Origin: Euglena gracilis
Taxonomy: Eukaryota
NCBI GenBank assembly: GCA_039621445.1
Contig: CP154954.1
Location: forward strand, 24,440,954-24,504,953
DNA: 64,000 nt
Direction: 5' to 3'
Each line of letters starts with the position of its first letter. Within the stretch, counting starts at the first letter, position 1. Under the pieces are notes generated by a model that saw nothing but the letters and a program-made list of their open reading frames with translations, ran no database searches and was not told where the DNA came from. Positions 16,456 to 54,569 of the stretch are shown here, one piece after another. The position numbers and the translations under genes are program-made.

Positions 16456-19400
16456 TTCCACGCGTTTTAAAAGAAACATATTTTTTTCTTACGCAGGAAT
16501 GCACTCATTCCATTTTTATTCAAAAGGGGGGCGGCTTAAAAACCTTCGAGGACCCTCCTCGAACAACCTCGAACGACATTCGAGGAGGGTCGAACCTCGA
16601 ACCTCCTCGAATTCGAGGTTCGACCCTCCTCGAATGTCGTTTGAGGACATCCGAGGAGGTTCGAGACCCTCCTCCTACGGACCCTCCCACTACCGTAACC
16701 CTCCCGTCCGGACCCCCCACCATTCCAGGGTGGGGGGATGGTGGGGGGGGGGCCCTCCCCACCAAAACCCCGTCCGCCTTCCTTTCATCGAACCCAACCC
16801 CTCCACCACCTGTCGGGAGCCCCACTCAGCCTGAGGGTGAAAGGGGAGGGGGTTTGCCCGGGCCGCCGCGGGGGGACGTCGCTGGCCATGCCAGCCCTGC
16901 TGCCCCGGCGGGACCCCGGCGGGGCCCCGGCCCCGACCTCGCTGGGCGGCCCCCCCCCCGCCTTGCCCCGGGAGCTGAAGTCCCTCCGGAGGGGCGGGGG
17001 AGGTGTTGCCCTGTGTCTCAAAAGAGGCAGGTAGAATGGCAACCAACGGTGCCCCCCAGGAAAACAGGAAGCGGTGTGGAGGAGGGGTCTCTCCCCCAAC
17101 CCACCAGCATGGGGGGTATGGGGAGGGAATATGGGGGGCCACGCCACCCCATAGGGTTTTCCAGGCTGCCCTGGGAGGGGGGAAGGCCACAGGGGGGCCA
17201 AAGTGAACGCCATACAGGGCATGGTGGCGATTTTTCGGAATTTTTTTTCTCGATAAAAAATGCGAAATGCCGTGTGCATACAATCACCAGGTCACCAGCC
17301 GACCCCCCCCCCCCGGGGTGGGGACTGGTTTTTGGTCTGGACCCCCTCCCTCTTGGGGGGTGGTTGGCAAAATACCACTAAACTAACCTGGCGCCAAAGG
17401 CACTGTAAAATTTTTGGCCTATTTTTCCAGTTTTTGATCAAATTTCTTTTGGATTCAGAGTGGCCGACCCCCCCTGGGAGGGGGAGGGTAGCGACTGACT
17501 GGGTTTCCAAAAAAAGTAACTGGTTTTTGGAAGAGTGGAAGTGACCCCCTCCCCCCCACTCGGTAAAAAAAATTGTATGGCAATGTGGGTGGGGGGGCTC
17601 CCTCCCCAAACAGGCCTTTTTGCTCCCCACGGGCTCCCAATCAATTGATTGAATCGGGGGTGTGAATGTTGTGGCTCCTTTTTTTGACAGCATTGGTTGG
17701 GTTGACCTTCGTTGCTGCCCCACAACTCGCTAGTGCTCCACAGATCGCCGGAACCAAATGTCACTCGCAAGCCAAAAGCTGACCAACGTCCCAATCCACA
17801 TAATGCCCACCAGGCTTCTGCTCAAGGGTTCACAGTACCCCCCCGGGGGGCTATAGTCCAAATTTGTTTTGTGGAAATCCCAGTGGACCCTCACCCTGGG
17901 GGTCTGCTAGCAGGAAAATTTTCCCCTGTGACTGGCGCGAAACAGCGAATTTTTTTTAACCCCAAAACCTGCCCGAAATGCCAATTTTTGGCCATTTTTG
18001 GGACAAAATCAGCCAAATAAAACATATTTGAAAAACTAATTTCCACCTCGGCGCTAGTTCTGCAGAGGATTTTTTCCAGTTGGGGGACCCTGGGACCCCC
18101 CCCCCCCCCAGGGGGATGGTCCAGCTCGTTGCCTTTGTTTATGCAAAACCCTCCCCCTGAATAGAAGCCCCCGCTGATTACTATTTGGAACGTTCGTCGA
18201 AAACCGGGGGGGGGTCCTATTTCGGGGGGCGCTATTCGGGGGGGGGGTAGGAGAGGAAGCTTCCACATTTGCATTATTGGAAGTGAGGGAAGAGGAAAGC
18301 AAATCTGCGGAATGTTGCAAAAGTTCGGGCAACAACGAAGGGAATGAGGCACTGAGGGTAATATGCAGGTTGTAGAATTGCTTTTTTTTGCATCATCCAA
18401 GCTTTGAAAATTCGCATTTTTTGCATAATTCTCTTTATTTTGCACAGCGAAAAGAAAATTTTGTATTTTTTTCTATTTTTTGTCCTCCTTTTTTTTCGAA
18501 AAGAATTTTGGGAGATTGCACAGGAAAAACAGTACCACAAGCTCATATTAAGTTTCATTTGGTGAAATGAAACATACCTTTTTTGGCGTTTTTTTTATTT
18601 TACTTTTTGGCATTTTTCTTTCGAAAGCTAACGAGCAAGGCCGAAGGTACTGCTTTGCTTGTGTTTTCATGTTTTCTTTGTTGGATAGAAGTGCAAATGA
18701 TTGTCCAAAAGATACAAAATATACAAAAGATACTGTTTTGTGTTACACAGAATCCGGCATAATAAAAGTTTTCATTGGAGGGGGTGAAAACTTTCTGCCT
18801 TCTCCAGCAGTACCGTCTAAGTCCTAAAGATAGATACAAAGAATTTGCTAGTTGCATTTTTTTGCATTGCATATTTTGTGGTGCCTTGTTGCATATTCCC
18901 CTCCCCCAAATGAAATATTGGCCCAGTTCATTTTTGGCTTTGTATTTTTTCCGTCCACCAAATCATTCTGGATATTGCATAGCAGAAATGGCCAAAAAGA
19001 CCACAAATGACCCAAGTTTTTCTGACATGATCCCTGTTGACTGTGGTCAAAACTGGCCCAAAATGGTCTGAATGGCAATGAGGCTCAAAATTGCCTGAAA
19101 TGACCAAAGATGGCCTGGCACCTGAAAAATGACACGTTTTCCGCAATTCTATCACATTGCTTCGCATATTTGATACACATTTCAGCGCTTATTTTGAAGG
19201 TTTAATTTTGCCGTCAAGGCACAAAGTGTGGTTTTCTTAAGGACCCGGGGGAGGGGTCCCGCCAGAAAACCAATGGCATCACAGGACGCCGGGTTTTCGG
19301 ACAGAACCGGCGTCCGGAAAACCTGTGGGGGGACGCCGGTTCTGTCCTGAACCTGGCGTCCCAAACTCCGGTTTAATCGACAAAAATGGATGGAAAGGGC

Positions 19401-20464
19401 CCAAAATTGTTAACACTCAAGCCAAAAATGGCAAAACCTGGCGAACAATGCCAAAAAGATGTTGATGATGCCCCATTCATTCAAAAATGTCCTCGTGGCT
19501 CACCTTGAATGGATGTGGAAAAAATTATGGCTTAAAGGCCCCCAGGGGGAGGGGGGTCCAGGCTGGAAAAAAAAAAGTGCTGGCTAGACCCCCGACTCTC
19601 CCTTCCACTGCTCCTGTCCCCGAATAGGGTGATTCCCCCCCCCCCCCAAAGAAGGATCCAGGGGCATCCGTGCCGTAGCTCCCGGCCAGCCTGCGGATCC
19701 ACCCCCTGGATCCACTGGTAAAAGTTTGGACTTGCACAAAGCCAAAAGTCTCCAGCGATTTGCGCCGTAATTTCATGGCTTGCTTTTGCTGAGACTGTCA
19801 GAATCAATGCAATTGAAATCCCCGTTGGTCACCCAATTTTTTTTCTACGGATGAAAATTGGTTTTCATAATATTTTCTTAACTTCCAAAAGCAACAAAAC
19901 GTCGTCGGAATGATTCAGCCAAAATACAGCAATAATCTGCTCAGCAGTACAATTCAGCAAACACATGCTTGTCTGGGTAGAGAAAAAAATGTTCCAATAA
20001 AAATAGCCAAAGGTGGAACCTTTGCTTCTAGTAAAACTGTGTCCGTCAGTATATTTGGCTTTGTTCTTTGGGTCTCTCACTTCGTGCAGCTTCAAACAGG
20101 CAAGTCTTTGTGGGTTGCACAAACATTTGAGGAGCAGTTCGATGCAAAAAAATTTAATTTTTATTGGAAAATTCAGGTGCACAAAGACACATGGCGTGCG
20201 GCGTGCATGGTGTGCTACACCATGTGCTGGCGTCCCGAATGTGCAGGGAAGAGGGAACACAACATGGACCCTCGAAAAACACGACGCAAAAGAAACAAGA
20301 AACCACAAAAAAAAACAAAATGGTCAACCATAAAAAATGGGAAACCACAAAAAATGGGAAAAGGCACAATTTGCATGAAATTTCTTCAGGAGCTGCTCGG
20401 GGTGCACAGTTTTCTGCTGGAGAGGAAAAAACTTTTCATCTTGCACAAAAATAACAATTTGTTA

Positions 20465-20685
20465 CCCCCTCACCCTGTCGTACGACCACCCCTCATTTAC
20501 GACCACCCCCCGGTCACAGGTTGCAGGTCATAGGGTGTTATGACCACCCCCCCCCCCCGGTCACAGGTTGCAGGTTACGAAAATTTTAACTCCACTTTAC
20601 CAACGGCCGCCCCCACATTTACGACCACCCCCCCTGGTCACAGGTTGCAGGAACCCGGTCGTACGACAAGGGGGGGGGGGGCGGG
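20465..20685. mobile_element. Same MITE, diverged copy 3
   Basis: GTCGTACGACC / GGTCGTACGAC inverted ends, three internal units, TA flanks. Confidence 0.75.
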
Positions 20686-21279
20686 TAACCAAAAAAATGC
20701 AAAAATCAAAAAAAAATAAGGTCTCAGGGGGAAATTGGGGCCATAATAAGAAATGAACACAGCGGATAATTTTTCAGCAAAAATTCAAACTGCTGGGGAA
20801 AAAGCACAAAAATAACGAACAAAGAGGAACAAATTCCAAATTTTACCAAAACCGAAAGTCGCCAAAACAAAAAAAAACATTTGCCTCCCCAGCTGCTTTG
20901 TGGCAGAGGTTAGCCGGGGTCAGCCGGAGGGGAGGGGGTAGGGGGGTCTAGGGGTTGGGTCTCCAACAAAAATGGATCGGATTCTCGTTGGACTTTGTTG
21001 AATTGTTGGATGGGGTTGGGGGGTGGTAAAAAAATGCCCCAAAAAGCCCAAATACAGCTGGCTTGGCATTTTTCAGCAGAAATTACGAGGTAAAATCCCC
21101 AAAACCTCCCAAAAATGCCATTTTTTGGCTTTTTTTGACCCCTTTCCCCCAAAAATTTCGGCTTTATTGTGCCGAATTTTTTTCAGCTACCTAGTCCCGC
21201 TAGCACCTTTTTCCAGCCGGCGGCTGGTCCCAGCCCCCCCCCCCCCCCGATGGGTGCCTGCGTGGGTGTCCCCTCCGAA

Positions 21280-21780
21280 CTCTCCCTCCAGAGGCATCCG
21301 ATGGGCTGCGCCGCCTCGTGCCCCAGCACCCTTGCCCGTGCAGAGGCCCCCCCTGCCACCCTGGGGGCTGGCCCCCCGGCCAAGCGAAGCAAAGCGGGAG
21401 GCGACCAGGGACCGGGGAACAGCGCCTTGAGCGAGCAGGGGCGGGCGCCGGGCGCTGGGAGACACATTGGCCGTGCTTGGGGCTGCGTTTTGGTCTCCTT
21501 TGGGGAACGGCGGCGGCCGTTCTCGCCCGCCCCCACGCCCTCCGCCGGCTTCGGCCCCGGTCCCTGGCCACATCGCCGGGGACCTCGCTCCTTGCCGGCC
21601 GCGGTGCGCCGCAGCCCCGCCGCAGCAAGCGATGAGGCACCGCAGCCCCGGCGCCGCATCGTTCGACCGGCTGGAGCAGGTGGGCACGGAGCCCTCTCCC
21701 AGCCAGGCCTCGGGTGGCCAGCGGGCAAAAGGCTCGGTCGCCTCCGACAGATTTTGGCTCAGCCGCCGATGATCCCAGGG
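21280..21780 (+). repeat. GC-rich dispersed repeat (second copy ~43670-44110)
   Basis: Shared CTCCCTCCAGAG...CCGATGGGCTGC...CCTCGTGCCCCAGC...GGCTGGAGCAGGTGG. Confidence 0.7.
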
Positions 21781-22469
21781 AATTAGCTGAGTGTTGGTTT
21801 TTTACAGTGGGGATTAGACCACCCAGGCTTGGAGGAGGAGGGGTCCAGACCCCCTCCCAGAACCAAAAAGTATTTCCGGCACTTTGCGCCGCGGAAGGTA
21901 ATATTTTTGGTATGTGTTTTAGCCAATTTTTCAAAAAAAACGCGATTTTTGGGCTTTTTTTCAGCCCAAAATGGCGCTTTGTGCTGGAATTTTTTTTGTA
22001 GAGGGACTAGGGGGTTCCAGACCTCCCCCTCCCCGCTCATTGAATACTCTGATGGCCCGTGAGTGAGGAAAAGCGTTCCTCAAATGGATGAATGACACAT
22101 GACTTTTGTGAGAAGAAGCATATTGTACAAAATTGATCAAAATGCTTTTCCACTTCTCAGGAAAGGGAGTGAACCCCTAGCCACAAGTCTGCTGCAGTCA
22201 CAGCCTATGTGGAAGAACCCAGGCACATGGGCCTACAAAGACGCAAAAAAAAATGAACACCGTCCAAATAGAACCAACTTCGAGGGAGGTGCAGAAATGA
22301 ACGGGTCATCACAGGCAGGGGTTTGGTTGTTGTTTTTTTAAAACCTTCTGTGTAATCTCCCAGGCTTTTTGGACTTTTTTGTTGTTTGTTGCATTTTGCC
22401 AATTATTTTATTTCGTAATTATTTTGAAAAATCGTTCTGGGGAGAGTATTAACACGTGCGCACATATGG

Positions 22470-23720
22470 AGCCCGTGGTGGCCACCTCTCGCCTGCCCCA
22501 TCCACCTCCGCCGGTTATTTGCAGAGGAGATTATCTGTCCCCCGGACGTCCAGGGTCACCCTCCGCCAAAGGAGCGGCGGAACGCCGTCACCTTTGACCT
22601 CCCGGCGGAGCCCGGGCTCCACCGCGCCAAGGGGTTCAGCGACCTCCCGTTCGCCTTTGCCAGGGTGGCTGTCGTGGGCTCTGCCGTTCGGGACCATTTG
22701 TTTGTGACTTTGCACGGCTGCTTTTTTTTGCTTTGTTTGCAGTCCTTTTTTTGGACAGCCTTGCTTTCATATTTGAAGGCGTGTCAGAACGTAATGTTGT
22801 GTTTGCGATTTTCCCCATACAGACTTCAGGTCATTAAATGATCAGATTCTTTCTAAAATCATACTGGAGAGTAAAAGGAAAGGGAAATTAAATTGGTGCA
22901 ATGTTGTTCAGTGTTGTCAAAATGACTGAAATAGGCGGGTGTTGAAGTTTTTTTTATAATATGTATTCCTACATAGTTTGAATTTTTCATATTTTCATAA
23001 TGAATTGAAAATTTTTCCGGCTGTTTGCATTTTTCCCTTTTTTGGATAATTCACAGATTTGCCTGCTAACTTTTTTTTGGTTCCACCGGATAAATGCTTT
23101 TCATTATGCAATGTTCTTCATCATGCAGCACCATCAATGTTTTGAATAATCATTCACATTTTCTTTCAAAAATAATAACAGAGAGAAACCTGCTTCATCA
23201 TGCAACAACAATAATGAAAAAAATGCACAAAAAGTGGAGATTTCAACTTCAATTGTTTGGGAATCCCAGTTGGAGGGACGTTTACACTGCGGGGAGTTCG
23301 TAACAGAACTAGCACGAGGCTTGATTGTTTTGCCCTCCTTTCGTTTGTTTTCCTTCTTTGACCCCAGCATATTTGCAGTGCCTTGTTGCACCACCCCCCG
23401 CTGAGAGCAATCAAAAACACGGAATATGACGGGAAAGTCGCTGCGAGGAATAAAACGCGGATTTTTTTCCCGCTTCTTCGCTCCCACATCTATGTCTCAC
23501 TCCTGCACACCGCATACGCTGCCTTTGCTGCATCTCGACCCAGGGCTGCAACCTTGTGACTGGGTTGTGCTGGGAAAGGGCGATGCCGGGACGCCCCAGC
23601 AGAGGCCACCCCCCTCCGCTGCGGTGCACGTCCCTGAGAAGCGGGCCGACCCCCGACCGCTGTCCTGCGCTACCCGCAGTGTCCCGATTCATGCCATTGC
23701 CACAACGTTGTTTCGTGTCA
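22470..23720 (+). repeat. Dispersed repeat related to ~49960-50600
   Basis: 22540-22690 matches 50012-50150 (CCAGGGTCACCCTCCGCCAAAGGAGCGGCGGAACGCC). 23530-23700 matches 50450-50590. Confidence 0.7.
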
Positions 23721-23815
23721 GGTTTTCTTCCCCGGGCCCAACAGCAAGATATTAAGTTGAGTTTTGTACAGAGGGAGGAGGGTCCAGACCACCCCCTGTT
23801 CCCCTGCCTTTGGAC

Positions 23816-25360
23816 CAGGCACCTATAGCTAAAATGGCCCAAAATGGCCTAAAATGGCCTAAAATGACCTTTTGACCCCCTATAGGTGGGGGTCCCTAAA
23901 ATGGCCTAAAATGGCCTAAAATGGCCTAAAATGGCCTAAAATGGCCTAAAATGGCCTAAAATGGGAAAAATTCTGTTACACAACAATTTTTTTTGTGAAC
24001 AACTGACGCCATTCGGGTAATTACTTTCGGTGTCTTTTGTTACAGCTGGTTGTGGAATATGTATGGAAATCAAAATAACTGCCAATTTTCTCAATTGTAA
24101 TTGGTCAATTATCTCTAAAACAATTGCCAATTTTCTGAAAGCAATTGCGGTTTTTCTCAAGAATGAATGCCCTCGTGACAGTTGTGTTTGGAAGACAAGT
24201 TTCTGTTTCATAAGCGTCTCTTTCTCTTGCATCCACGTCTGATCCGATGCTAATGCTCGTCATGGGTACAATGTGTTGGCCGGGAGTTTGCCTACAACGT
24301 GGGCCCTCTTGATGGGGCTGTCGGATGACTTTCTTTGACTGTCCACCCCAATGGACACTTCTTTTTTCTGATTATGAGACAACTGGCAATTGCTTTTGAG
24401 AAGATTGCAGTCATACTTTGAGGCAGTGGCAAAATTTTTGAGACAGGTGGCAATTCATTGTGAGTATCAGTATCAGTCCCCATGGTCCCCAACGTTCTTT
24501 TGGTATTTGAATTTTGAAGGTTTGGACAGCTGGATTTTCTTCTTACTCCCATCTTTTTTGGTGCGCAACGATGTCTGTTTTGCAAATAATGAAACAGTGC
24601 AAATGTGGAAGTATGGGGAAAAGACAGGGAAAGAAAGACGAAAGATGTTGGAAAAATCTCAATTGAAAGATGTGCATGCTTATTTGTTTTGTTACGTACC
24701 AGGGATTCCTTCAAAATAACGATCCAGCACAATTTTGGGGATTTTCCAAAACCGCAAATAATCACGCCGAGTGATCAAGTGACCCAAACAACCACAAACA
24801 ATTATGAATGATATTCTCTCCTGTTTATGAACCTTTTTAGTATTAAGTTTCCCCAAAGGGGAAAACCAACACGGAGAAGAGGAATTGCTCTAAGCTCTCA
24901 CATTGAATTTCACCATGCAACAGCATCATCTTTCAGAAAAATGGCTTCTTTTTGCGAAATCCTGCAAAATGGCGTAGATTTCACAAAATACAAAAATTTG
25001 GGCGCTTTTCTTGGTTGCGCAAATATAAACTTTAATATTTGTCAAACGTTTTTTTTTTGAAAATTTTTCACTGCCATAATTTCTTATTGTTCAGAATTCC
25101 TCTATGGGTATGAATTAAGATTTGTTGATCGTGGTTGTGATACATTGTTTATGAATTTTGCATGCTTTTTTGTATGTACATTTCTTATTACTGAATAAGA
25201 GAAGGTTTGCACACGTTATGATACAGTTTTTTGGGACAAAAATGACGAAACATTGTGATTTCAGAACCCCTTAAAATGGTCTAAAACGGCCTTAAATGGC
25301 CTTAAATGGCCTAAAATGGCCTAAAATGGGGAAATTTTTAGGCTTGACTATAGGTGCCTG
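23816..25360. mobile_element. hAT-like element, same family as 8990-10551
   Basis: TIR CAGGCACCTATAG / CTATAGGTGCCTG. TSD CTTTGGAC/CTTCGGAC. AAAATGGCCT arrays. Shared ends, different interior. Confidence 0.9.
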
Positions 25361-41616: not shown

Positions 41617-42021
41617 CAGGGGGGGGGAATGCGTTTCGCATTTTTTCGCATTTTTTGCGCATTTTTTTTCATTTTTTTCAGCGCATTTTTTTTGCTTTTT
41701 GGCACATTTTTTCGTGATTTTCCAAAATTTTCGCATTTTTTGACCATTTTTGTAATTTTTTGCAAAAATTTGAAATTTTCGACTTTTTTTGAAACTTACA
41801 TTTTCCTCATTATTCTACATAATTTCTTCAAATTTGGTGCCATTTTTCCATGTTTTTGGGTAATTTTTGCATTTTCGTGATTTTTGCGCATTTTTTCTCG
41901 GATTTTGCACATTTTTGCGCATTTTTTCCAAAAATGCGCATTTTTTGCGCATTTTTGCGCATTTTTGCGCATTTTTGCGCATTTTTTCCGAGGCCGGGCG
42001 AGCGCATTCCCCCCCCCCCTG
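41617..42021. mobile_element. MITE with (ATTTTTGCGC)n arrays; right-end-only relative at ~58774-58862
   Basis: TIR CAGnAATGCG / CGCATTCnTG. Flanking direct repeat ATCAATG. Confidence 0.85.
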
Positions 42022-44217
42022 ATCAATGCCACCAAGGGGGGTGGTGACATCCAGCCTGCCCAAACTTTCAGCCATTTCAGCACCCCTGGCCCAGGGGTCC
42101 TCACAGGGACTGTTCAGAAAGGGTCAGTCCACCCCTGGGAAACTGTCTGTCTGTTACTGCTGACCTGTCATCATAGGAGGCTGTATCTGCTGACATGTCT
42201 TCCATTAATATATTTTAAGAGTTTTTGTGTCGGCCAGGGTCAAAAGAATGCCAATTTTTATTTTCTTCGACCCGGACCCCCAGAAAATCGCCCTCTGGTC
42301 CCCTGTCTTCACAGGGACCTGTTTCCGACCTCTGTACTCGCTGATCAGTTTGTCAGTTTGTCAGATGTCAGTTTCCCTGTTGGCGTGGGTACAACAGTTT
42401 TTGCTTTATTTTTGGCCATTTTCCTATTTTTTGTTTGAAAATTTTGACTTTCAAGAAATCTTCATTTTCGACCCCAATTTTCTTCTGGGACAAATAATTG
42501 CCAATTTTTCCATTTTTGCATTTTTTTTGTCAACAACGGCATATTTTTATGCAAAATAAAAGTTTCCTGGTGGAGGTGGAAATTTTTCTAAGTCCTTTCC
42601 AGCAGAAAGTGCACATCCCGGGGAGCTCCTGAAGGATTTTACATATGCAACTTTTTTTTGCGTTATTTTGCGTTTTTTTTTTTGGCGTCATCTGTTTTTG
42701 CGCCTGCGCGTTGCAAGCGTTTTTTTTTTTTGGCGTCGCGCTCGCCAAATGTCCATTTTGCATTCCCTCCCCCTGCGGGATGAGGTAGGGTGGCCAGGTT
42801 TTCAAAAGGTGGGTGGGTGCAGGGTTTCCCACAAATTCGTGCCGCAAAAAAACCACAAATGATCACAAACCAGCACAAAATTTGGGACTTCCCAAATACA
42901 TGTACAAGTAATACAAGTACCTGACGAAGGGGGAAAATGGGTCGGAGGGAATTTTAACAGGAAATTTGTGAGGTTTGTTGAGTCGAAATTATTCTGCGAC
43001 CTTAGGATTAAGTTTCTCCACGACTTCTCTGAGGATCAATTTGGGATCAAGCATTCAAACACGGGGCTGACTTTTACGTTTTAGAAGTTCCCATCCCACC
43101 GCATTCAACAATCCACAGGATAAAGTACCAAATACCCCCCGGGCGCTTGACCCCCCTCCTCCTTACATGCAAATTTGTCACCCCTCAAAGCAAAGTTGGC
43201 CTTTAGCCTTTTGCATATGACCGCCAGAATTCTTAACATACAAATTTGGCCACCCCTAAGGTTGGCCCGGGCCCTCCGCACAGGGAGGGGTGAGGGGGTT
43301 GCCCTTGTGTCAGCAAAACACACACAATGTCTGGTGTCCCGGGACCTCCGCCCGATGCATCGACACAAACACGTCACTCCCAGGCTGGGCTGTACGGGAT
43401 GCCCCGCAACAGATGGGTGTGTCGGGTGGGGGTCGACCACCTCCCCACCCCCATCCTGGTGGTATGGGGGGCGGGTCCCTCCCATCAGGCCTTCCCTTAT
43501 TTCCCGTTGCGCCAATTTTTAGGTCAAATTTTTCTTTTGGCGCCTTGGCGCTGAAGGAATTTTCTTTGAACAGGTCCCACGGTGGGCGGGAGTTGACCCC
43601 CCCCCCCCAGGCCTTCCCGTACAGCCCTGCCCCCCAGGGCAACCGCATGCATTTCTTCTTCCCCTGACCCTCCCTCCAGAGACAACCGATGGGCTGCCCA
43701 CCTCGTGCCCCAGCGCCCCCGGCCCTGCAGAGGCCTCCCCGGCTCCCCCGGTCGCCGACCCCCCGGACCGGGTCCAACGGCCCCACGCAGTCCCGCCTCC
43801 CAACCCGGCGGAACAATGAGGGAGGCGCCCAGGGACCGGAGGAGAGCGGAGGCCTGCGGGGGCGACGGTGCGGGTGGAAGCCGGGCGGCAACGGGCGGGG
43901 GGGGGGGGCGGCGCATTTGGCGCTGTGGTTTGATCTGTGTCGGGCCAGCGGCCGGGCCGGCCCGCCTCCTCCGGCGCGCTGTCCGACAGCCACGGCCACG
44001 GTCCTTGGCGACTGCTCCGGTGACCCCGCCTTTTGCCGGCGCGCCTCCGCCCAGAGTGGGCGATCAACAAAGCTGCACACGGGCTGGAGCAGGTGGTGGA
44101 GGATCATTGCTGATGTCAAAACCCCCGAAAAAAATCTGCGATTGCCGAGCTCGTGAACAGGAAAAAAATTTTGCTTGGCCATCCTGGGGTGTATTTTAGT
44201 ACCCCTCCTGGGGGGGT

Positions 44218-44651
44218 ACACCAAGAGCACAGAGCCCAGGTGGGGTCCAAAGGGTCGGGGAAACAGCAGCAGCAGCAGCATCCCAGCAAGCAGCAGCGGA
44301 AAGTATTTCCTTCCCAGGGGGACCCGGAGGGCCGTGGTGGTAAAAAGGGTCCACTGCAGGTGACACCGGTACTCGCCGGCACGCAGTGGAGGAGTAGACC
44401 CCTTACCACCCCGAGCACCTCTTGGGAACGAAATCGAGCAGCAACAGAAGCAGCAGCAGCAGCAGCAGCAAGAAAGGGGAGCCAAAAGCTCAAGGGGGAG
44501 GGGAAGGGCCAGGAAACCACAAAACGGACGTTTGAAGTCCCAGTGAATATGGGGTCAGACAATTATTGGGAGTTGCTCCGAAGAAAGGGCCAGAAGCGGA
44601 ATGTAGCGCCAGGCCTTGAACCAGACAGAAGCGAAAGTGCATCTAAGGGGG
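44218..44651 (+). repeat. 5' pseudo-LTR
   Basis: Highly similar to 49389-49818 and in frame with the GIY-YIG ORF. Confidence 0.9.
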
Positions 44652-44926
44652 ATCACCCGCGCAAGCCGTGGGGTCCTGCACTCTCAGGACATGACATCCA
44701 AGAATTGCACTCCCATACCCTTGGACAAAAAACATTTTTTTTCCGGGAAAGATTTCAAGATTTTCAACTGGAGGGTCCATCGTGCCTGGTAAAAAATCTG
44801 GAAGGAAGGAGCGTGAAGGAAGTCCAGACCAAGGTGGCCTCCATCCAGCACCGGTGGTGGGCAGATGGTGACTCCCACCATGTCCCGCAATTTGTGGAAG
44901 GAAGGGATTCTGGCACAATCTCAGAG

Positions 44927-45212
44927 ATCTATTACATGCACCATTTGCCTTCAGGGAAGGGGTACGTGGGCCTGGCCCACCATGGTGCGCAAGAGCGCAT
45001 GAAAACACATTGGGGGTGTCAAAACCGGGAGACTGACCCCATCAGCATGATGATGCGCAACAGCTCCAGTGCTTTTGAATGGATCTGTTGGCCAGTGGAG
45101 AGGTTCCCAGGACGCCGAGAATGGCACAAACAGTTTCACAAGAAAGCTGCCCATCGAGAGGGCTGGTGGGCATCTTTCCTGGGCACCTGGTGGCCGCGGG
45201 GCTTCAACTGGG
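44927..45212 (+). pseudogene. GIY-YIG endonuclease domain
   Basis: IYYMHHLPSGKGYVG..ERMKTH...REGWW...TWWPRGFN: GIY/YIG-like motifs, conserved R/H, catalytic E and the P-G-x-N end motif. No CCHH cysteines. Confidence 0.85.
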
Positions 45213-45680
45213 GAGCACTGGCGGGTACCATAAAGGTGGTGTAAAGGCGGATTGGAACACCCACCGAGAAAATTTTCACCGAGAGTGGTACAGCAAGTCG
45301 GAAAGAGGACTGGCAGATGCGAAACAGTGGGTGACGGATATTTGTGACGCCATCACCTCTTTTCTGGAGCGTTTGGTGCGGGAGGAGCTCAAGCGACACA
45401 AGGAGCTCAAGAAGAAGCCCAAAGGAGATTTTGTGAAATTGCTAATCACCCACAAAGGATGGAACGCACCAGAGGTGAGGAAAGTGATCCGGGAATTGCA
45501 GGTTTGCAAGTTGCACCCAGACCGAACAGCAGCAGAACACATTTGGGTGTGCGAACGCAAAGTTCCACCCATTGGCAGCTGGTTGCTGAATTACACTGCG
45601 CTTGAAGATGAGGACCTCACCGCGAAACAGAGAGCCGAACTCTTAACTGGGAAAACATCAACGGTGAGAAAGACCCCAAA

Positions 45681-47350
45681 AGTTTCTGTCATATCCTTCA
45701 TCCACGGGTGGAAGATGTGTGGAAAGGACATATCGGCACCGCAGATGTCAGGAAGTTCAACAGTCCGCTTGTACGTGGGTTGTTGATCAAGGGGCAAGCC
45801 TACAAGCTGGAACACAGGGCTGAGACCTTGCTGCAGGAGTTAGGAAAGGGGCTGTATCCAGTAAATGATGAAAAGGGGAGGAGACCCTATAGATTTTGAA
45901 GCCTGGAAATTGTCAATCATCCAGAGAGTGAAGGAGAAGCTCACAGGCTCTGACAACGCCATGTTCCCCACAGGAGACATGGGCCAGAAAGAAATCCGGG
46001 CCATCCAAGAGCATTTGGTGTTTCTGAAGGAAGACTGGGCACCGCATGTTGGGGTGGCCATGTACACGTACAGATATATGTGGGGGCACACCTTTCAGGT
46101 GGACAAGGAAGACCCACAAGCCCTGACCCAAAGGCATTGGGATTTCCTCGAAAAGAGAGGGCTGCAGCCCAACAGGCACATATTTATGGAATCTGGAAAT
46201 CTGCCAAAAGGAACCTGCAGTGGATAAGCGGTGTGAGAAAAGACAAGGAGGAGGAAAAACGAAAGGAAAACACAGAGCCAGAAGGGTCCATTGCAGGCGC
46301 CGGCAAGGAGTTGGTGGGTGTGCACACACAAGTGATGCATTCACTCCGAAGCAAGGACGCCCACAACCGCAGGAAAGGGTTGGCCAAGGCATGCTGGTTT
46401 GTTGAATCGGTCGGGGAGGTGGCACAGCCGTTGCGCTTTGAAGTCACAGATGTGGCCAAACGGGGCGCAATGGCAACTACGGTGGATTTTGTAACAATGT
46501 ACCCCTCATTTGACCAGATGTTGTTGAAGGACAGGCTCAGGGATGCGATCTGTGGGTTTGGGAATGGGAGGAAAAGAGATTGGAAGCGAGGCACCAGCTG
46601 CGGGCAAGGAAAGACAGGTGGGTGCACCTCATGCCAGAGGAAGCAGCACAGGATGCTTCTGGATGCTTGTCAAAGGAGGAGGTGTTGAAAATGGTGCAAT
46701 TTGTGATTGACACTGGGTTCATCAAGAGGGGAAGCACGCTGCTGAAGCAGGTGAAAGGGTTTGGGATGGGGTTGGCGTGTGCACCCCAAATTGCCAACCT
46801 GGACTGCTACCCTGTTGAGAGAGGTTTTGACGCCACAAAGACACTTGAGGAAATGGAGCACAATTACCGTTTCATTGATGATATTCATTCATTTTCCGGA
46901 TGCATCCCGACTGCAGAGCAGTATGGCATGCAGTACAAATACACAAAGACCAATGATGGAGAATCTGTGTACCTCGGAATGGTCCTCAAGTGGCTCCCGC
47001 TAGTGCACACGGGGGAAATGAAGTTCTTCACCGGAATGCATTTCAGAGATTGCACGTACCCAATCCGAATCAGGAGGTACCCAGGGGCAGGGTCAATGGT
47101 CGCAGACTCCCAGCGCTTAGGGGTCCTCACTGGCCAGTTCATCAGAGCACAAAGGCTGTGCTCTACGCTGCAAATGTTCAAATTTGCAGTGCAGGGCATT
47201 GTCCTGGCAGCCACCCGTAGGGGGTATTTTAGGCATGAACTGGACCGCATGTGGAGCAAATTCCTTGCTGATTGGTGGAAAGCGGAAGAAATCCGGCGGG
47301 TGGAGCTGCTTTCGTGGTTCCGCAAAATGACTCGTGTGGTGAGGCTGCAA
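45681..47350 (+). pseudogene. PLE linker and reverse transcriptase (frameshifted)
   Basis: GHIGTAD..LLIKG linker, IYGIWKSAK, DFVTMYPS (46485), QVKGFGMG..APQIANL (46748), YRFIDD (46865), YLG, and thumb GVLTGQFIRAQRLCS. Confidence 0.92.
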
Positions 47351-47404
47351 GTGCAGAAGGAGGGCAAGGAGCACAGCAAAGCTGTCCCATTTGCAAAGAA
47401 ATTG

Positions 47405-47458
47405 TGCCGGTTTGGAAGCGGGTGTTTGTACCAAGAAGTTGGGTGCCCATTCCAGCAC
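47405..47458 (+). pseudogene. CCCH zinc finger in the RT frame
   Basis: CRFGSGCLYQEVGCPFQH (C-x5-C-x6-C-x3-H). Confidence 0.75.
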
Positions 47459-47556
47459 AAGGTGCCAGTCCGTCAGCACCCTGCACGCCAACGCTGCTGT
47501 GGGCACAGCGGGGAAGTAGTCAGGAAGAACCAAGCAACCCTGTGGCTAGCAGCCCC

Positions 47557-47943
47557 GATGGGTCATGTCTGTTCCATTGCGCTGCCGTGTCTAACGAGGG
47601 CACCGTGGCACTGGAACTGCGCCGCAAAGTATGCAAAGTACGCAAAGTAAGCAGCTTATGTCAGGGAGGAATGGGATACAGAGATCCCGGGTTCGGGAAT
47701 GTCGGTAGGACAAACCCTGACAACCCTGGACTGGGACAAGGAGGGATATTTGGCATCAGTGGTCAGCCATATCCATTGGGCTGAAGAACCGGAGCTGGCT
47801 TTGTTGCCTCCTGTCTTGAAATTCAGACTGCGGGTGTTTCTGGACCATGGTGACCATTGTCAAGAGTGCACACAACATGGCTCCAGAGGTCCCCTCAGGC
47901 GGGTGGTGTTCCACCAAAACAGGGGTCATTACGACGCGATCAT
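47557..47943 (+). pseudogene. OTU-like cysteine protease domain (frameshifted)
   Basis: DGSCLFH...LRRKV, then WAEEPEL...GHYDAI, matching the OTU Cys box, W-x4-EL and His box. Confidence 0.8.
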
Positions 47944-48194
47944 GATGGACGGAAGCCCGGATCCAGAGAGGAGCCACCACACAACCCACTTGAAGGTGAG
48001 GAAACCACTGCTAATGGTGCCAACCAGGGCTGAGAACAAAGCCGAAGCTTACCAGAAAGCTGTGCAGAAGCGCAGAGCAAAGATCAGGAGGGAGAAAGCT
48101 AGTCGCCAGGGCAATGTTTTCATTGATGACGACGTGGAGTTGTTGATGAGTTTTGTAGAGCGCAGCAGTGACACGAGTGTTGACTGCAACAACT

Positions 48195-48385
48195 CCGTGG
48201 CAAGCCCTGGGGGTCCGAGAAACCACCCCCAGCCAGGACTGCATGGCAGTTTACAAGAGGATGAGCTTTCTGATCCACCCGGATGAATGTTCCCACCCAA
48301 AGAGCAAAGAGGCTTTTCAGAAGCTGGGAGATGCCAAGGATTGGGTGGATGACAGAGAAGCGTGGTACACAAATTACCAACAAAG
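48195..48385 (+). pseudogene. DnaJ J-domain
   Basis: PWQALGV...YKRMSFLIHPDECSHPKSKEAFQKLGDAKDWVDD with intact HPD. Confidence 0.85.
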
Positions 48386-49388
48386 GGAGGCGTCCGACCG
48401 ATTGGCGAGGTGTTGGGCACTCTGGGTTGCTGGAGGCGGGCAGCTCAACATCTTGCTGGTAGAAGAAGACCTGCAACGCCATTGTGGTTTGGGAGAGGAG
48501 GGCGTGTTGCGCATACAGCTGGAGGAGGAGGCCGAGTGGCAGCACATCGGTTTGGCATGGGTGGAAACCGAGGTACTGTTGCAGAGCAGGCCCAGGCAAA
48601 GCACACGCACCAGGACCCAACCTCAATGGTACCAGAGTGAACAAACAGAGCACAGAGAACAGAATATGAGGCGCCAGGCGAGGGCGTCAGGCAAAGAGAG
48701 GTTCTCTTCTGATGGGGACACAGAAATGGCAGCAAAAGAGGAGAGCCACGACTGGAAGGCAGGGGAGCGGATAGGCGAGGCCGAGAACCGTGGTCCTCCG
48801 GTCACAGCCAAAGGGGGTCCCTGGGGACAAAAAAAAGGCGAGAGCCGGGGCATGCACCAAGTGCCCAACAAGCTCCTGGAGGCAGCCAGCCCCATCAGAA
48901 ATGGCACCAACCCGTTTAGCAAAACAAACCAAACAGTGCCGAAGGCTGGACCACAGTCCGAGGCACCGGAAAATCAACTTCTACACACACTCCCAACCAC
49001 CCGCCTTGATTTTGCCACCACAGTTTGGAGGTAACCACACAAAAGGTGGACACACCCACACCGACACCAACGCCCGCAGCAATGGCAAGGCGTGCTGGTT
49101 TGCACAGCAGTGTCTGTACCAGTACCCAGCCAACTGGTGGGGATACACCCAAAAAGTGCAGCCCACAGAGAAGGGCACCCCATGGGGAGGGCGGGGCAGA
49201 CCCACGGGGGAACAGCGCATGTGCAAGTATGGTATGGGATGCTGGTGGAGGACCACCAGCATCCCATAACCACCACCACCACCAGAACGCAACGCAAGAA
49301 TTGGGAACCAAACCAAGAGCACGATCTCATCATCATGCCCATCCAATTGCGAACAACGACGCAGACAGCAACACAACAATTGGGAACC

Positions 49389-49818
49389 ACACCAAGAGCA
49401 CAGAACCCAGGTGGGGTCCAAAGGGTCGAGAAAACAGCAGCAGCAGCAGCAGCCCAGCAAGCAGCAGCGGAAAGTATTTCCTTCCCAGGGGGACCCGGAG
49501 GGCCGTGGTGGTAAAAAGGACCCACTGCCGGTGACACCGGCACCCGCTGGCACGCAATGGAAGAGTAGACCCCTTACCACCCCGAGCAGCACTTGGGAAT
49601 GAAATCGAGCAGCAACAGAAGCAGAGCAGCAGCAGCAAGAAAGGGGAGCCAAAAGCTCAAAGGGGAGGGGAAGGGCCAGGAAACCACAAAACGGACGTTT
49701 GAAGTCCCAGTGAATATGGGGTCAGACAATTATTGGGAGTTGCTCCGAAGAAAGGGCCAGAAGCGGAATGCAGCGCCAGGCCTTAAACCAGACAGAAGCC
49801 AAAGTGCACCTAAGGGGG
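49389..49818 (+). repeat. 3' pseudo-LTR
   Basis: Direct repeat of 44218-44651. Confidence 0.9.
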
Positions 49819-52356
49819 TCTTTCAGTTACCCCCTGCACTGCAAAATAAATTATTAAATTATTCCTCCAGTTATTCGTAATTTAAATTGTTTTGTTTTCC
49901 GGACAAACAGCATTCTGGTGGTGTGCTTTTGCGTGTGCGTGCATGCGGCACCGCCTGCCTGCACCATCAACCGCCGCCTGCTTCTCCAGGAGGAAAAGGA
50001 GATGGTCCATTCCCCGGACGCCCAGGGTCACCCTCCGCCAAAGGAGCGGCGGAACGCCATCACCTTTGTCCTCCCAGCGGAGCCCCGGCTCCCCTGCACC
50101 AAGGGGTTCCGCGACCTCCCATTTGTGTTTGCCAGAGTTGCTGCCGTGCGCTTTGCTTCCAAAAACCTTGCGGGCTATTGAGTGTGTATGTGTATGATTT
50201 TTTTTATGACCTGTTTGCCCCTGTTCATTTGCCACGCCTCGGTGTTCAGGGAGGTAATTGAGATATGGATCATAGAGCCGAACATCAAAAACATTTTCCA
50301 TCGACCATTCTGCATTCCTGATGATGCACCCACACGCTGAAGCAATGGGGAAAGAATTGGAAGAATTGGCAGAACGCATGTGGACATTGGAGATTCCCAT
50401 GGCCGATGGCGATGTCCTTTCTGGACATGGACACAGGGTTGCTTCCTGATTTTGGCTGGGTTGCAGTGGGGTCTGGGAGAGCAGCCCCCCTCCCTGTGCC
50501 CTAGCAGAGGCCACCCCCTTCCTCTGCGGTGCACTTCCTGCAGAAGTGGGTCGAACCCCGACCGCCGCCGCACGCCAGCCGCATCGTCCCAGGCCATACA
50601 ACATACCGCACACAACATTGGAATATTGCTGGTATTCACTACCCCACAGGTGGACGAGTGACTGACTGATCCCCTTATGCAGTCACTGACTGCTTTTTTT
50701 TAAATACTTCAGGGTCCCTCCCCGAGCTTAATGCGGATTTACAACGAAAGTTGGGCTCTGCTTTTGACTTGCGCTGCTGCCTTTCCCATGCGGCACTGTG
50801 TTCTCCCCAACGCAGGGTGCGGTTGATGGATCACCCTCCGGTCATGCAAACAGCCAGTGTGCCCGCCCACCCGCCATCGGTATCAAGTGGATGCCCCGGC
50901 TGCACTGCCCTCGACGGCTGCGTTCTGCCGTGGGTTCAGTGCTTGTTCTGAGCAGGCCATTGGCCCTGCTGGCAGGCTCGATGGCCCGGGCTGTTGTCCC
51001 CCCCCCCCGTTTGAGGGGAACCCCCACCCCCTTGCCACCTCCAGGCCAAGCACTTTCAGTGACAAATCCAGACGATTTCACCAAGGTTTTCGCAGCATGG
51101 AAGAGATTGGGTTGTGATCCGGCCATTCCCAACAAATAAAAGGAGGGCTGCACGTCCAAAACCTTTTGGATGTGCAGCTCATATCAATCTGTCTCCGTGG
51201 TTCTTCCCCTGAGAGTGTTGTTTCTTTCCCTTCGCTGGCATCTCTTTTGTGGTTAAATGGGCCCGTCTTATTACAGGAAGAATATTTCCCCTCCCCCCAA
51301 TTGGCCACCAAAATATTGCATTGTTCACCTGACACATAAGCGATTCCCCCAAAGTTAGCCCTCAAACTGGCTCAGGGAAAGCCTGGGGAGGGGTTGGCTG
51401 ATTTCAAGCCCTGGCACTCAACCACACATTCATTTAGCTTTGTGGGGCCCCTCCCTCCTGATTTATTTGAAGACTGTTTGGTGGTTTTTTTTTTTTTTTG
51501 CTGGCGCCAGGAGGAGAGGGGAGTTCCCCCACCCACCGAAGCCCGGTCTGGGACCACCCATGTTGGGGGGGGGTCCAGCCCCAGACCCACCCACCCACCC
51601 ACCCACCCCCACACAGGGGAGGTCTGCTGAGTTAAACAGAAGGCCCCACCAACCCACAACATTAGAAACATAAAACGGATTGTAAAATCCCCCGAATAAG
51701 TGCTGTGTGGCTGTGTGCATTTTAAGGAAGTATTTTGGACCCCAAGGGGTGCGCACTTATTAGGGCACTGCGCACTTATTAGGGCAAAGCACAAAATACT
51801 TGATTTTGCACCACTCTTTCCATTTTTTCTCCTTCTTGTAATGTCAAGCAAGAAGTCAAGTGATTATCTGTCAAAGTTTTGGGCTTGGACGATAGAAAAA
51901 TTTGGTCCGAGAAGGACAGTTCTGAGAATTGTGTGTGTCTTTCTGACCTGAGATGTGACAGTGATTTCTCCTTTGGGGGATGTGAACTTTTTAGGGGGGT
52001 AGTTTTGTACCCTTGTGGGGGGGTGTAATTACCCCCCCCCCCTTATTGTCCCCCCCCCATCATAATTATTAATACGCCACAGCCAACAGTCTTCACACAT
52101 CTAAGATTCATCTCAGATGAATAATAGTATATGTGCCCTCTCTCCCTGAGTGTGTGTCTCCAACTCCTCCAGTGGGCGTTTGGTACGCTCCCCACCTACA
52201 CCATACTAGCTGGGAGGCAAATCTCAACAGTGGATACATTTTGTGCTGTTCTGGCATTGTAGAATTTTGCGGCATCAGGCGCAGCTGTAACAGTTCATAC
52301 AGAGTCAAGTGCGCACCCCCCGGGGGGTGCTGTGGGCATGTGCACCTCAAATAGCC

Positions 52357-53102
52357 GATTTTGCCACTGCAGCTTGGACGTAACCACGCCAAAGGTGGGC
52401 ACATTCACACCGACACCAACACCCCCCAGCATTGGCAAGGCGTGTTGGTTTGGACAGCAGTGTCTATACCCTGTATCAGCACCCAGCCAACTGGTGGGGA
52501 TACACCCAAAAAGTGCAGCCCACAGAGAAGGGCACCCCATGGGGAGGGCGGGGCAGACCCACGGGGGAACAGCGCATGTGCAAGTCTGGTATGGGATGCT
52601 GGTGGAGGACCACCTCCTGCCCATATGCCCATCCCATTGAGAACAGCAATGGGAGAACACAACGCAAGAACTGGGAACCACAAGAGCACAGAGCCCAGAG
52701 GGGGTCCAAAGAGTCAGGGAAGCAGTAGCAGCAGCAGCCCAGCAAGCAGCGGCGGAAAGTATTTCCTTCCCAGGGGGACCCGGAGGGCCGTGGTGGTAAA
52801 AAGGGCCCACTGCCGGTGACACCGGTACCCGCTGGCATGCAGTGGAGGAGTAGGCCCCTTACCACCGTAAACACCTCTTGGGAACGAAATCGAGCAGCAA
52901 CAGAAGCGGCGGCAGCAGCAAGTGTAGGAAAGATAAGCCAAAAACCCAAGGGAGAGGTGAATTGCAAGGAAAACACAAAAACGGAAGTTTGCAGTCCCAG
53001 TGAATATGGGGTTGGACAATTATTGGGAGTTGCTCCGAAGAAAGGGCCAGAAGCGGAATGCAGCGCCAGGCCTTGAACCAGACGGAAGCCAAAGTGCATC
53101 TA
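52357..53102 (+). mobile_element. Solo 5'-truncated copy of the PLE 3' end
   Basis: Colinear with 49008-49812 and ends at nearly the same point (GCCAAAGTGCATCTA). Confidence 0.85.
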
Positions 53103-54569
53103 CGGAGGTGCTGTGGGCAGGTAGGGTGGTAGGGCAATTTCGACCCCACTGGTAGTAGCACACCCTGTAGCACACCCCCAATGCCTTCGGCGCCGGAGAC
53201 CCGTAAATGGCCATTTTCAAGGGAAATTTGCCTGGGTCGGCAAGTGACCCTCCCTGGGGTGTGTGCCTGCTAAGGGCAGGCAGCCCATAGGACAAGGCAC
53301 CCTCCTCCCCCCTGGGGTTGGTAAAAAGAAGCCCGGTTGGAACACATTTCCTACCATAGAAGCCTGTGCCAGTTAGTCAAAACTGGTGTCATCCTCCTGG
53401 GTTGCGTCTCTCCCCCACCCTGCCACGGAAGCAGGCCGCGTTGTTTCCACGGAATTCTGCCTCAGGTCTCTTCCGTCACCATTGCCTGCCACAGTGTTGG
53501 CGTCCTGCAGAGTGCTTGCTTCCGGCCCCTGAATCGCCTTCTGTCCCAGTTCCCAGTTCCATTGCTGTCCCCACCTCCACCTCTTCCGTCTCCGAACGAA
53601 GAGATACGTGTTGGCGGCCTCCTTTCCAGCCCCTGTTTGACGTGCTCCCATCTGTCACCCGTGACGGCATGACAATTATGTCGAGGTTCCGACCAGGCTC
53701 AACGTGAGACCGACCCCATCCTGGGGGACCTGCTTGGGCAGGCACTCTGACACCCACACCGACACCACCCAGGGGAGTTGGACACGGCCAACGTTGGTCC
53801 AGGCACTGCTGTGCCAGATCCTCCAGGAATGAATAATATTTTTGTGGCGATTTTCCACGTAGGTGCGACCAGTCCGACCCCCCCCCAGGCCTTCCCATAT
53901 TTTCGGGGGCACCGTTTTTTTTTCGGCGCGAAAGGAATTCTCTTTGAGCAGGTGCCATGGTGGGTGTCGACCCAACCCCCCACCTCCCGGGTGGAGGGTC
54001 CGACCCCCCCCCCCGCCAGGCCTCCCATACAGCCCTGACGACCCCCCAAAAGTATTTCCTGCGCTTTGTGCCTCCCCTCGTACAATCATTTAGTCACTGG
54101 CCGACCCCCCCCCTGGGGGAGACGACTGGTTTTTTCAGAATGATTGACTAGTTTTCATCCCGGACCCCCTCCCCCGGGGGGGGGGTTGGCAAAAAAACCA
54201 TTCCAGTGACCTGGCCCCGAAGGCGTCGGAATTTTTTTTGCTTTTTTTCACATTTGTGGTCAATTTTCCTTTTTGGATTTCAGAGTGACGCCCCCCCCCC
54301 CCCGGGGGGGATAGCGGGGGGGGGAGGTAGTGACTGACTGATTTTCCAAAAAAAAAACAGTGATTGACTGGTTTTGGGAAGAGTGGGAGTGACCCCGCTT
54401 GGGGGTCGAAAATTGTCTGGCCCCCCTCCCATGGGATTGGTCAAATTTAGTCTGACTCCAACAGCCATGGGCTTCTCATCAGTTGCAGTGCACAGCAGTT
54501 GGCCAGATTCTTGCTGGTTAAAGGGGAACCCTCCCACTTATAAACCCCCCACATTTATAACTCCCCCTC

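Follow-up and report, generated by a model that had tools for sequence, protein, structure and literature searches.

In a 64,000-nucleotide window of the Euglena gracilis genome (contig CP154954.1, forward-strand positions 24,440,954 to 24,504,953; coordinates below are those of the window), we analysed a retroelement stretch at 44218–49818 that forms a partial head-to-tail tandem of a Penelope-like element (PLE). All of its features lie on the plus strand. An upstream pseudo-long terminal repeat (pseudo-LTR; 44218–44651), which is the 434-bp 3′ tail of a 5′-truncated tandem copy, precedes a full-length unit of 5167 bp (44652–49818). This unit is degraded and nearly all coding, and is delimited by a repeat spacing of 5167–5171 bp, by the shared 3′ boundary and by frameshift-aware alignments. 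Its own 3′ end forms the downstream pseudo-LTR (49389–49818). The direct repeats are 94% identical over 44218–44453/49389–49624 and 97% identical over 44458–44651/49625–49818. A separate, 5′-truncated copy of the same family, represented only by its 3′ end (52357–53108), lies 2.5 kb downstream of the main unit in the same orientation, at 84–89% identity. The likeness of the three copies ends at one 3′ boundary (44651/49818/53108; ...CTAAGGGGG) and their left ends differ, as would be expected of 5′-truncated retroelement copies inserted head to tail. The composite insertion has a G7 run ahead of it and G5 at its end, at this single locus. The 3′ region carries a spaced 79-bp duplication (49283–49322/49362–49401, 88% identity), and the number of internal repeats of this type differs between the copy at 52357–53108 and the others. 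We also observed (CAG)n runs inside the pseudo-LTR (44260–44290 and 44440–44470); the 3′ region that holds the 79-bp duplication and (CAG)n occurs in many different lengths among the contigs of other copies.

Protein relatives were sought by a full HMMER scan of a protein library with the reverse transcriptase (RT) piece of the element (46514–47650), which returned 553 proteins at E ≤ 1e-3 and 34 at E ≤ 1e-30. The nearest is P0166, the EukProt entry 'EG_transcript_489' (1264 amino acids, 88.6% identity over 1191 codons). Identifiers of the EG_transcript form are used in Euglena gracilis data papers, and P0166 is taken here as a Euglena gracilis transcript product. It runs in a single frame from the start MGSDNYWELL through GIY-YIG, CPC, KEDRAPH, RT, CCCH and OTU. 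In the window, the start codon of the corresponding open reading frame (ORF) lies inside the upstream pseudo-LTR (ATG, 44549–44551, beginning MGSDNYWELL), and the same peptide recurs in the downstream pseudo-LTR (49716–49745). Residue 1 of P0166 aligns to 44549 and its frame continues across the 44651/44652 junction. With the start codon placed in the pseudo-LTR, the gene is complete only when the tail of a previous copy lies upstream. In two independent relatives, P0167 (residues 1269–1430) and P0177 (residues 885–930), the ORF stays open through the pseudo-LTR part into the N terminus of the next unit, so no stop interrupts the frame anywhere around the unit. For the downstream MGSDNYWELL of the window (region 49569–49880), the first stop in frame comes in flanking DNA, at 49878–49880.

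The first domain of the unit is an N-terminal GIY-YIG endonuclease (44819–45208), with the GIY-YIG core IYYMHHLPSGKGYVG at 44927–44971 and the motifs REGWW (45155–45169) and PRGFN (45194–45208). An AlphaFold model of 44819–45208, built with ten relatives as alignment rows (predicted local distance difference test 84.6; predicted template modelling (TM) score 0.78), was compared with the Protein Data Bank (PDB) by Foldseek. Ranks one to three are the catalytic domain of I-TevI (E 1.5e-3, probability 1.00, TM score 0.72–0.74 on the target), followed at lower ranks by the GIY-YIG domains of UvrC and Slx1 and by a GIY-YIG restriction enzyme. In a PDB search with a profile of full-length relatives (alignment A4), I-TevI scored no better than E 0.8 and ranked below low-complexity matches, and the GIY-YIG assignment thus rests on the fold test. 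The residues Y, Y, G, H, E and N of the domain are invariant in 9–11 relatives. In the window copy the GIY and YIG halves have no Cys between them, and in an alignment of 11 endonuclease domains no Cys is conserved within the core or immediately before it.

A linker and N-terminal RT region, aligned to P0166, follows at 45210–46180. It contains FCHILHP (45684–45704), the remnant of a CxC motif from which the CPC of P0166 has been deleted, and the DK-like motif KEDWAPH (46027–46047). Both CxC cysteines (C430 and C432 of P0166) and the Asp of the DK motif (D552) are invariant in nine full-length relatives; the DK motif reads P.DK..H in distant relatives, EDRAPH in this subfamily and EDWAPH in the window. 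The RT core and thumb (46180–47400) were placed by protein relatives and by motifs A (DFVTMYPSF, 46485–46511), B (QVKGFGMG, 46748–46771) and C (FIDD, 46871–46882). Motifs A and B are 88 residues apart in P0166 and 63–108 across 55 relatives, spacings that stand here without a canonical PLE baseline for comparison. The Pfam family RVT_1 matches the relatives weakly (E 1e-4 to 1e-2). Pfam scans of the broken ORF pieces of the window itself yielded DnaJ, otherwise only chance-level Androgen_recep and zf-CCCH_PAN3, with no OTU, RVT or GIY-YIG match; the identity of the OTU, RT and GIY-YIG domains in the window is based on the relatives and the fold model.

Downstream of the RT thumb is a CCCH zinc finger (CRFGSGCLYQEVGCPFQH, C-x5-C-x6-C-x3-H, 47405–47458). 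The profile support for this finger is slight: the window piece matches only zf-CCCH_PAN3 (E 0.09), and a zf-CCCH_2 match in the relative P0152 (E 4.9e-4) is under the Pfam cut-off. Next comes an OTU cysteine protease or deubiquitinase domain (47541–47946), recognized by its motifs and by the profiles of relatives, with the Cys motif DGSCLFHC at 47557–47580 and the His motif GHYDAI at 47924–47941. OTU (PF02338) scores above the cut-off of 23.3 bits in relatives that include P0009, P0170 and P0171 (24.5–38.9 bits). Among solved structures, a 25-row family profile matches the OTU domains of nairovirus L proteins best (6dx3, E 7.9e-13; 4hxd, 3prm, 3phw and others at about 1e-8), and cellular matches include Otu2/OTUD2, OTUD5 and Otu1, the whole OTU range extending from E 7.9e-13 to 1e-4; a phmmer search of the PDB with the window's OTU Cys piece gave no match at E ≤ 10. 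The catalytic Cys of DGxC is kept in all 28 aligned relatives and the His of HYD in 27 of the 28, the single exception being truncated. In this alignment the window row is valid from AAYVREEW onward, and the Cys motif of the window was placed separately. Like the nairovirus L proteins, the element fuses an OTU domain to a polymerase, but in those proteins OTU is N-terminal to the RNA-dependent RNA polymerase of a negative-strand virus, whereas the element places it on the C-terminal side of its RT. This resemblance goes no further than the domain and does not imply common descent of the fusions. A protein atlas gave only leads below 0.9 (OTU clusters at 0.87, a Chlorophyta cluster at 0.85).

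The J-domain (48165–48380) lies in a third frame relative to OTU and was placed by Pfam, by a PDB match and by alignment to P0167; its HPD motif is intact (48276–48284). Against Pfam DnaJ (PF00226), the window piece scores E 4.6e-6 and 27.1 bits (cut-off 27.8), and against the PDB it matches the J-domain of DNAJC27/RabJ (2ys8, E 1.2e-5) and 6jmg (E 2.1e-4). Relatives reach DnaJ scores of up to 70.5 bits, and 18 of 19 complete J-domains among them keep HPD. The domain shares the HPD motif and the pattern of helices II and III with DNAJC27/RabJ and DNAJB1/B12; unlike in those proteins, it sits inside a retroelement polyprotein, without their other domains. The remaining C-terminal region (48381–49388), aligned to P0167, contains the internal duplication and remnants of CCCH repeats (KACWFAQQC, 49087–49113; CKYGMGC, 49222–49242), decayed in comparison with the four CCCH-like repeats of P0167. 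From the retained catalytic Cys and His and the HPD motif, the OTU and J enzymes of the family are likely to be active.

The damage to the window copy is extensive. Frameshift-aware alignment to P0166 gives 11 frameshifts and 2 stops, the last shift being due to P0166's own tail, and alignment to P0167 over 48165–49820 adds 8 frameshifts and 3 stops. Relative to P0166, 68 residues are missing, including a 36-residue deletion near 45355 and the CxC motif. OTU is cut by frameshifts at about 47556 and 47653 and by a stop at 47648–47650.

Intact relatives carry the same domains in single ORFs. P0167, a metagenome ORF of 1436 amino acids, reads RT–OTU–J followed by its four CCCH-like repeats, and P0152 (1364 amino acids), P0171, P0170 and P0175 each encode RT, CCCH, OTU and, further on, DnaJ in one ORF; DnaJ E values in these five proteins range from 1.8e-5 (P0170, below the cut-off) to 1.4e-17. 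A single frame of P0159 (1983 amino acids) encodes GIY-YIG, the motif CAC and RT, followed by USP/UCH at E 2.4e-32 and DnaJ at E 2.7e-19. The relatives P0005, P0006, P0007, P0170 and P0172 have PHD fingers at their C termini; Pfam detects none in the window copy or in P0167. The gene model of one RT relative, P0130, also includes ubiquitin, CLU and eIF3_p135 domains; in all likelihood the gene prediction is a chimera that joins an inserted element with the host gene around it, and the domain counts exclude it.

An original prediction from the DNA letters had proposed a Penelope-like retroelement between pseudo-LTRs, and the direct repeats together with the third copy and its common 3′ boundary bear this out. 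It had placed five domains, GIY-YIG, RT, CCCH, OTU and J, in this order on one strand, as is now borne out by motif placement, relatives and the fold model, and its broken frame is accounted for by about 18 frameshifts and 5 stops. It had called for a test of whether the domains fuse into one ORF, and they do so in relatives: from the endonuclease to OTU in P0166, and from RT through OTU to DnaJ in P0167, P0152, P0171, P0170 and P0175. Profile support for OTU and DnaJ was found, above cut-offs in relatives and at E 4.6e-6 for the window's J piece. The prediction had also raised the case that other copies lack 47.5–48.8 kb. They do not: the word depth of that segment is at least that of RT, and intact ORFs carry the module, which places OTU and J with the element lineage and not with a nested insertion.

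The depth comes from DNA run X1, which has the same species label. Summed word depth in this run, which does not equal copy number, is 216–974 in the flanks and 3,074–430,262 inside the element, climbs towards the 3′ end of the element, and amounts to 23,304–89,753 over 47.4–48.8 kb compared with 6,419–24,807 over the RT core. Besides word depth, 4929 contig pieces of the run aligned to the stretch. Together the two measures show that the element belongs to a high-copy family. Two other identities were considered and rejected. Against a host gene model or domesticated RT stand the very high repeat depth and the 3′ ends that the truncated copies have in common. The idea of an LTR or DIRS element was dropped because the 'LTR' is nothing but a repeat of the element's 3′ end placed in front of it and because the ORF crosses the junction; Pfam scans of the relatives, which found no RNase H, integrase or tyrosine recombinase, also count against that identity.

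PLEs are the closest transposon relatives of telomerase, and their mobility is poorly understood. The element joins RT and GIY-YIG in one ORF in P0166 and P0159 (and on one strand in the window), forms pseudo-LTRs from partial tandems, and is frequently truncated at the 5′ end, in line with PLEs in general. The original prediction had measured it against canonical PLEs, and that yardstick does not fit: with GIY-YIG ahead of RT, the element has the permuted order of the Naiad/Chlamys clade (main text of PMC8557442). As described there, canonical PLEs have a C-terminal nuclease with a CCHH finger within it and a hammerhead ribozyme in the repeat, and transcription of Penelope, Poseidon and Neptune starts within the pseudo-LTR. 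Our element shares RT and GIY-YIG, pseudo-LTRs and 5′ truncation with Penelope, Poseidon and Neptune as that text presents them (PMC8557442), and differs from them in its reversed domain order, longer unit of 5.2 kb and extra OTU, J and CCCH domains, without CCHH or hammerhead. The traits of PLEs with a C-terminal endonuclease (Penelope/Poseidon, Neptune and Nematis) are absent in that the nuclease precedes RT, has no core Cys and comes without a hammerhead; an Rfam scan of 42000–54000 at E ≤ 1 found no hammerhead, only two chance rows of long non-coding RNA.

Craig et al. (2021) recognize the Naiad/Chlamys clade by GIY-YIG at the N terminus, a linker with CxC, a DKG motif in modified form, additional sequence between motifs A and B and, usually, the lack of a hammerhead; DKG is changed to DKA in Naiad and to DK in Chlamys, and a further mark of Chlamys is that it has lost the CCHH and CX2-5CxxC fingers (main text of PMC8557442). 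Here, an N-terminal GIY-YIG is joined to RT via CxC in relatives (CxC being deleted in the window copy), and neither a CCHH nor a CX2-5CxxC finger accompanies the GIY-YIG. The element resembles Chlamys as portrayed in that text (PMC8557442) in its N-terminal GIY-YIG without CCHH, CxC linker and lack of a hammerhead, perhaps in its DK-like motif, as well as in its pseudo-LTRs from partial tandems, its frequent 5′ truncation and its long ORFs with C-terminal extras. According to the same text, Chlamys elements are present in green algae, in spike mosses and in a slime mould and insert at (CA)n or (C)n runs (PMC8557442); the G7 and G5 ends fit the C-run preference at this one locus. The start codon is in the pseudo-LTR here, and in Chlamys-3_cRei the transcription start site is reported there (main text of PMC8557442). 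We consider it very probable that the window element is a decayed copy of a high-copy permuted PLE of the Naiad/Chlamys clade, Chlamys type, and, from the intact relatives and the depth profile, we hold with similar assurance that OTU and J would be an integral module of this Chlamys-type family.

Proteases of the ubiquitin family are already known from transposons, and we suggest that what this element adds is the presence of OTU or USP together with J in a PLE. Chlamys-1_cBra of Chara braunii, at about 1800 amino acids, carries a Josephin-like protease at its C terminus together with a Cys/His-rich motif, and PHD fingers are common Chlamys accessories (main text of PMC8557442). The protease of Chlamys-1_cBra is thus Josephin, whereas here it is OTU, or USP in P0159 (PMC8557442, as above). 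A J-domain also sets our element apart: the main text of PMC8557442, supplements aside, mentions neither OTU, ubiquitin, chaperone, Hsp nor J-domain. Its nearest named host is a euglenid, and Euglena goes unmentioned in the same main text. In other transposon classes, the sources as excerpted describe a Josephin-like protease in Dualen (PMC8557442), Ulp1-like proteases in the NeSL and Utopia non-LTR elements (PMC4640811) and an OTU-like protease in Helentrons (PMC6431247). All of these resemble our element in fusing a cysteine protease for ubiquitin or a ubiquitin-like protein to a transposition protein; no J-domain is reported in the passages describing them, and in NeSL and Utopia the protease is N-terminal, unlike here (PMC4640811, excerpt). 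In a literature search that included the main texts of PMC8557442 and PMC6366073, with Repbase, Dfam and the PMC8557442 supplements outside it, we came across no PLE described as having OTU or USP, no retrotransposon described as having a J-domain and no account of Euglena PLEs. The original prediction had pointed out that the combination was unfamiliar from described PLEs, its novelty still to be confirmed. This stands in so far as no PLE with OTU or J was found described, and is qualified by the known Chlamys element with another deubiquitinase fold, Josephin (PMC8557442, main text). The recurrence of these proteases is taken up below. To our knowledge, and as far as these blank searches go, the J-domain would be the first in any retrotransposon.

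Across the RT family, the slot after RT is filled by OTU, USP/UCH, Josephin or Ulp1. USP/UCH occupies it in P0022/P0159, P0079 and P0115, and Josephin in the P0050 group (P0050/P0162, Pfam E 1e-10), P0071, P0083, P0092 and P0136; Ulp1 is there in one of 37 scanned proteins. We built an RT tree from 51 rows with all three RT motifs (seven cluster-mates were excluded), consisting of library proteins with no named PLE references. The window pairs with P0166 (Shimodaira–Hasegawa-like approximate likelihood ratio test (SH-aLRT) support 100) within a 20-row clade (SH-aLRT 99), in which 15 rows carry OTU, 4 are truncated proteins and one is P0159 with its USP. P0159 adjoins the OTU-bearing P0176 and P0010 (support 91–93), which suggests that the deubiquitinase fold was swapped at least once within the clade, OTU for USP. 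The Josephin rows are in the opposite half of the tree. The four folds are unrelated and their common trait is specificity for ubiquitin-family C termini, which favours tag removal over site-specific self-processing and points to ubiquitin removal as the activity probably selected for in this slot.

The results above establish the anatomy of the element and its multi-copy status, identify its domains, and show that these recur in intact ORFs with the catalytic Cys/His and HPD conserved. On this footing we hypothesize how an intact member might work. It would make one giant protein consisting of an N-terminal GIY-YIG nickase, CxC linker, RT, CCCH, OTU, J and CCCH repeats, from a transcript that, by analogy with known PLEs, would start in the upstream repeat. 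The GIY-YIG domain would nick the target and the RT copy the RNA in place, and such target-primed reverse transcription would leave 5′-truncated copies and partial tandems. The C-terminal part may be a host-manipulation module. OTU most likely strips ubiquitin or a ubiquitin-like tag, either from the element's own protein or ribonucleoprotein or from host factors at the insertion site, and removal of the tag could save the element from being degraded or restricted. The J-domain would most likely trigger host Hsp70 to fold or remodel the large protein or ribonucleoprotein. The original prediction had envisaged a role of OTU and J in proteostasis, in which Hsp70 would assist the folding of RT or its ribonucleoprotein alongside deubiquitination or polyprotein processing; such a role is plausible. 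That both domains are active and aid transposition we judge slightly better than even; in any particular substrate of OTU or J we place far less confidence. With a gene start in the pseudo-LTR and, in some relatives, a frame open all round the unit, expression may depend on tandem copies. It is pure speculation that, in a trans-splicing host, spliced-leader addition could replace the PLE hammerhead in cutting unit-length RNAs.

The best-surviving alternative is that the module acts on chromatin, with the deubiquitinase working on histones or repair factors at the nick, PHD and CCCH fingers steering it and J–Hsp70 disassembling complexes. The PHD fingers of five relatives speak for it, and the family profile matches the plant histone-reading PHD proteins SHL and EBS (E 2.5e-5 to 2.3e-4). 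CCCH-type fingers, by contrast, are more often RNA-binding. The detection of no PHD finger in the window copy and P0167 also stands against it, and we regard it as unlikely, even with the PHD fingers that are common in Chlamys elements (main text of PMC8557442).

Somewhat poorer is the case for OTU, USP, Josephin or Ulp1 as mainly a processing protease that cuts the giant or tandem-read-through product, with deubiquitination secondary. Papain-like and OTU proteases of some RNA viruses combine polyprotein processing with deubiquitination, and this precedent for both activities lends the idea some weight. The product is indeed very long (1264–1983 residues in intact relatives), and the ORFs of P0167 and P0177 that run into the next unit make tandem read-through products, in need of cutting, conceivable. 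However, the four unrelated folds of the slot share only specificity for the C terminus of ubiquitin or ubiquitin-like proteins. The 25-row family alignment A3 has no conserved adjacent Gly-Gly column, and the sole ubiquitin-like domain seen is that of P0130, the apparent chimeric gene model. We therefore think processing as the main role distinctly improbable. The remaining alternative, a one-off capture of host genes or a nested insertion in a single copy with no role in the element, could appeal to the different frames of OTU and J in the window and to the ability of PLEs to transduce foreign DNA between terminal repeats (PMC6431247, as excerpted), but we give it hardly any credence, because the same order recurs in uninterrupted ORFs of at least 10 distinct relatives at 40–88% identity, other genomic copies span 47.5–48.8 kb at a depth at least that of RT, and comparison with P0166 and P0167 shows the frame changes to be damage peculiar to this copy.

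Several observations weigh against an integral, active OTU–J module in a Chlamys-type element, our preferred reading. The window copy is dead: with about 18 frameshifts, 5 stops and a lost CxC it cannot work, and the worth of this fossil is as a witness of its family. P0166, the nearest relative, stops right after OTU with a frameshift-like tail and has no J-domain. Of the OTU-bearing relatives, 23 extend for 150 residues or more beyond OTU; the J-domain is present in 13 of these and missing in 10. It also occurs as two subtypes, one directly after OTU, as in the window, and another, more canonical one at the far C terminus; since their positions in the protein differ, J may have been acquired twice. 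Change has been faster in the accessory part than in RT, with a mean pairwise identity of 0.33 in OTU and 0.56 in RT. RVT_1 and GIY-YIG are below Pfam cut-offs everywhere. Clade membership rests on diagnostic motifs from one paper and on no tree with named references, and nearly all relatives are metagenome ORFs, which limits what can be said of the host range.

If the preferred reading of an integral OTU–J module is right, a recurrent slot for ubiquitin-family proteases, filled by four folds and often accompanied by a J-domain, would point to the host dependencies of these retroelements: restriction or turnover through ubiquitin, and assembly assisted by Hsp70. As described in the main text of PMC8557442, there is no in vitro system for PLEs. 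A Chlamys-type subfamily in euglenids and metagenome-only relatives may have conserved a cassette of deubiquitinase and J, and escape from ubiquitin-dependent control could then be a need common to this retroelement class that has so far gone unrecognised, with Josephin and Ulp1 filling the slot in sister lineages; we put this forward tentatively, as a possibility that falls somewhat short of even. The permuted PLE clade would be extended to a euglenid-like host, which bears on whether the clade is old or has been transferred between the green lineage and hosts with plastids of green-algal origin. Long ORFs of such elements with OTU, USP and DnaJ matches are also likely to be mislabelled as host genes; among our relatives, the source annotations of the fragments P0151 and P0156 read 'DnaJ-class molecular chaperone' and 'ubiquitin C-terminal hydrolase'.

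Elsewhere, scans for related loci in metagenome, genome and viral contigs gave no confirmed locus, and ten long ORFs in other parts of the window matched no Pfam family. Raw RNA reads from three runs with the same species label (about 5–6% of each) included 92–145 reads at ≥90% likeness to the stretch, mostly only partly on it and concentrated on the pseudo-LTRs, which allows no conclusion on expression. In a size-fractionated RNA run, X24, coverage of a 38-nucleotide stretch over the junction of repeat and body (44636–44673) is far above its surroundings. On its two sides, 72 and 87 reads continue into loose ends that are unrelated and highly uniform, and 82 of 82 minus-first-mate reads carry T>C at 44653; the probable source of the peak is a different transcribed locus containing a small piece of the element. 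Upstream of the element, a 414-codon open frame on the minus strand (43310–44554), in GC-rich low-complexity DNA, reaches into the repeat.

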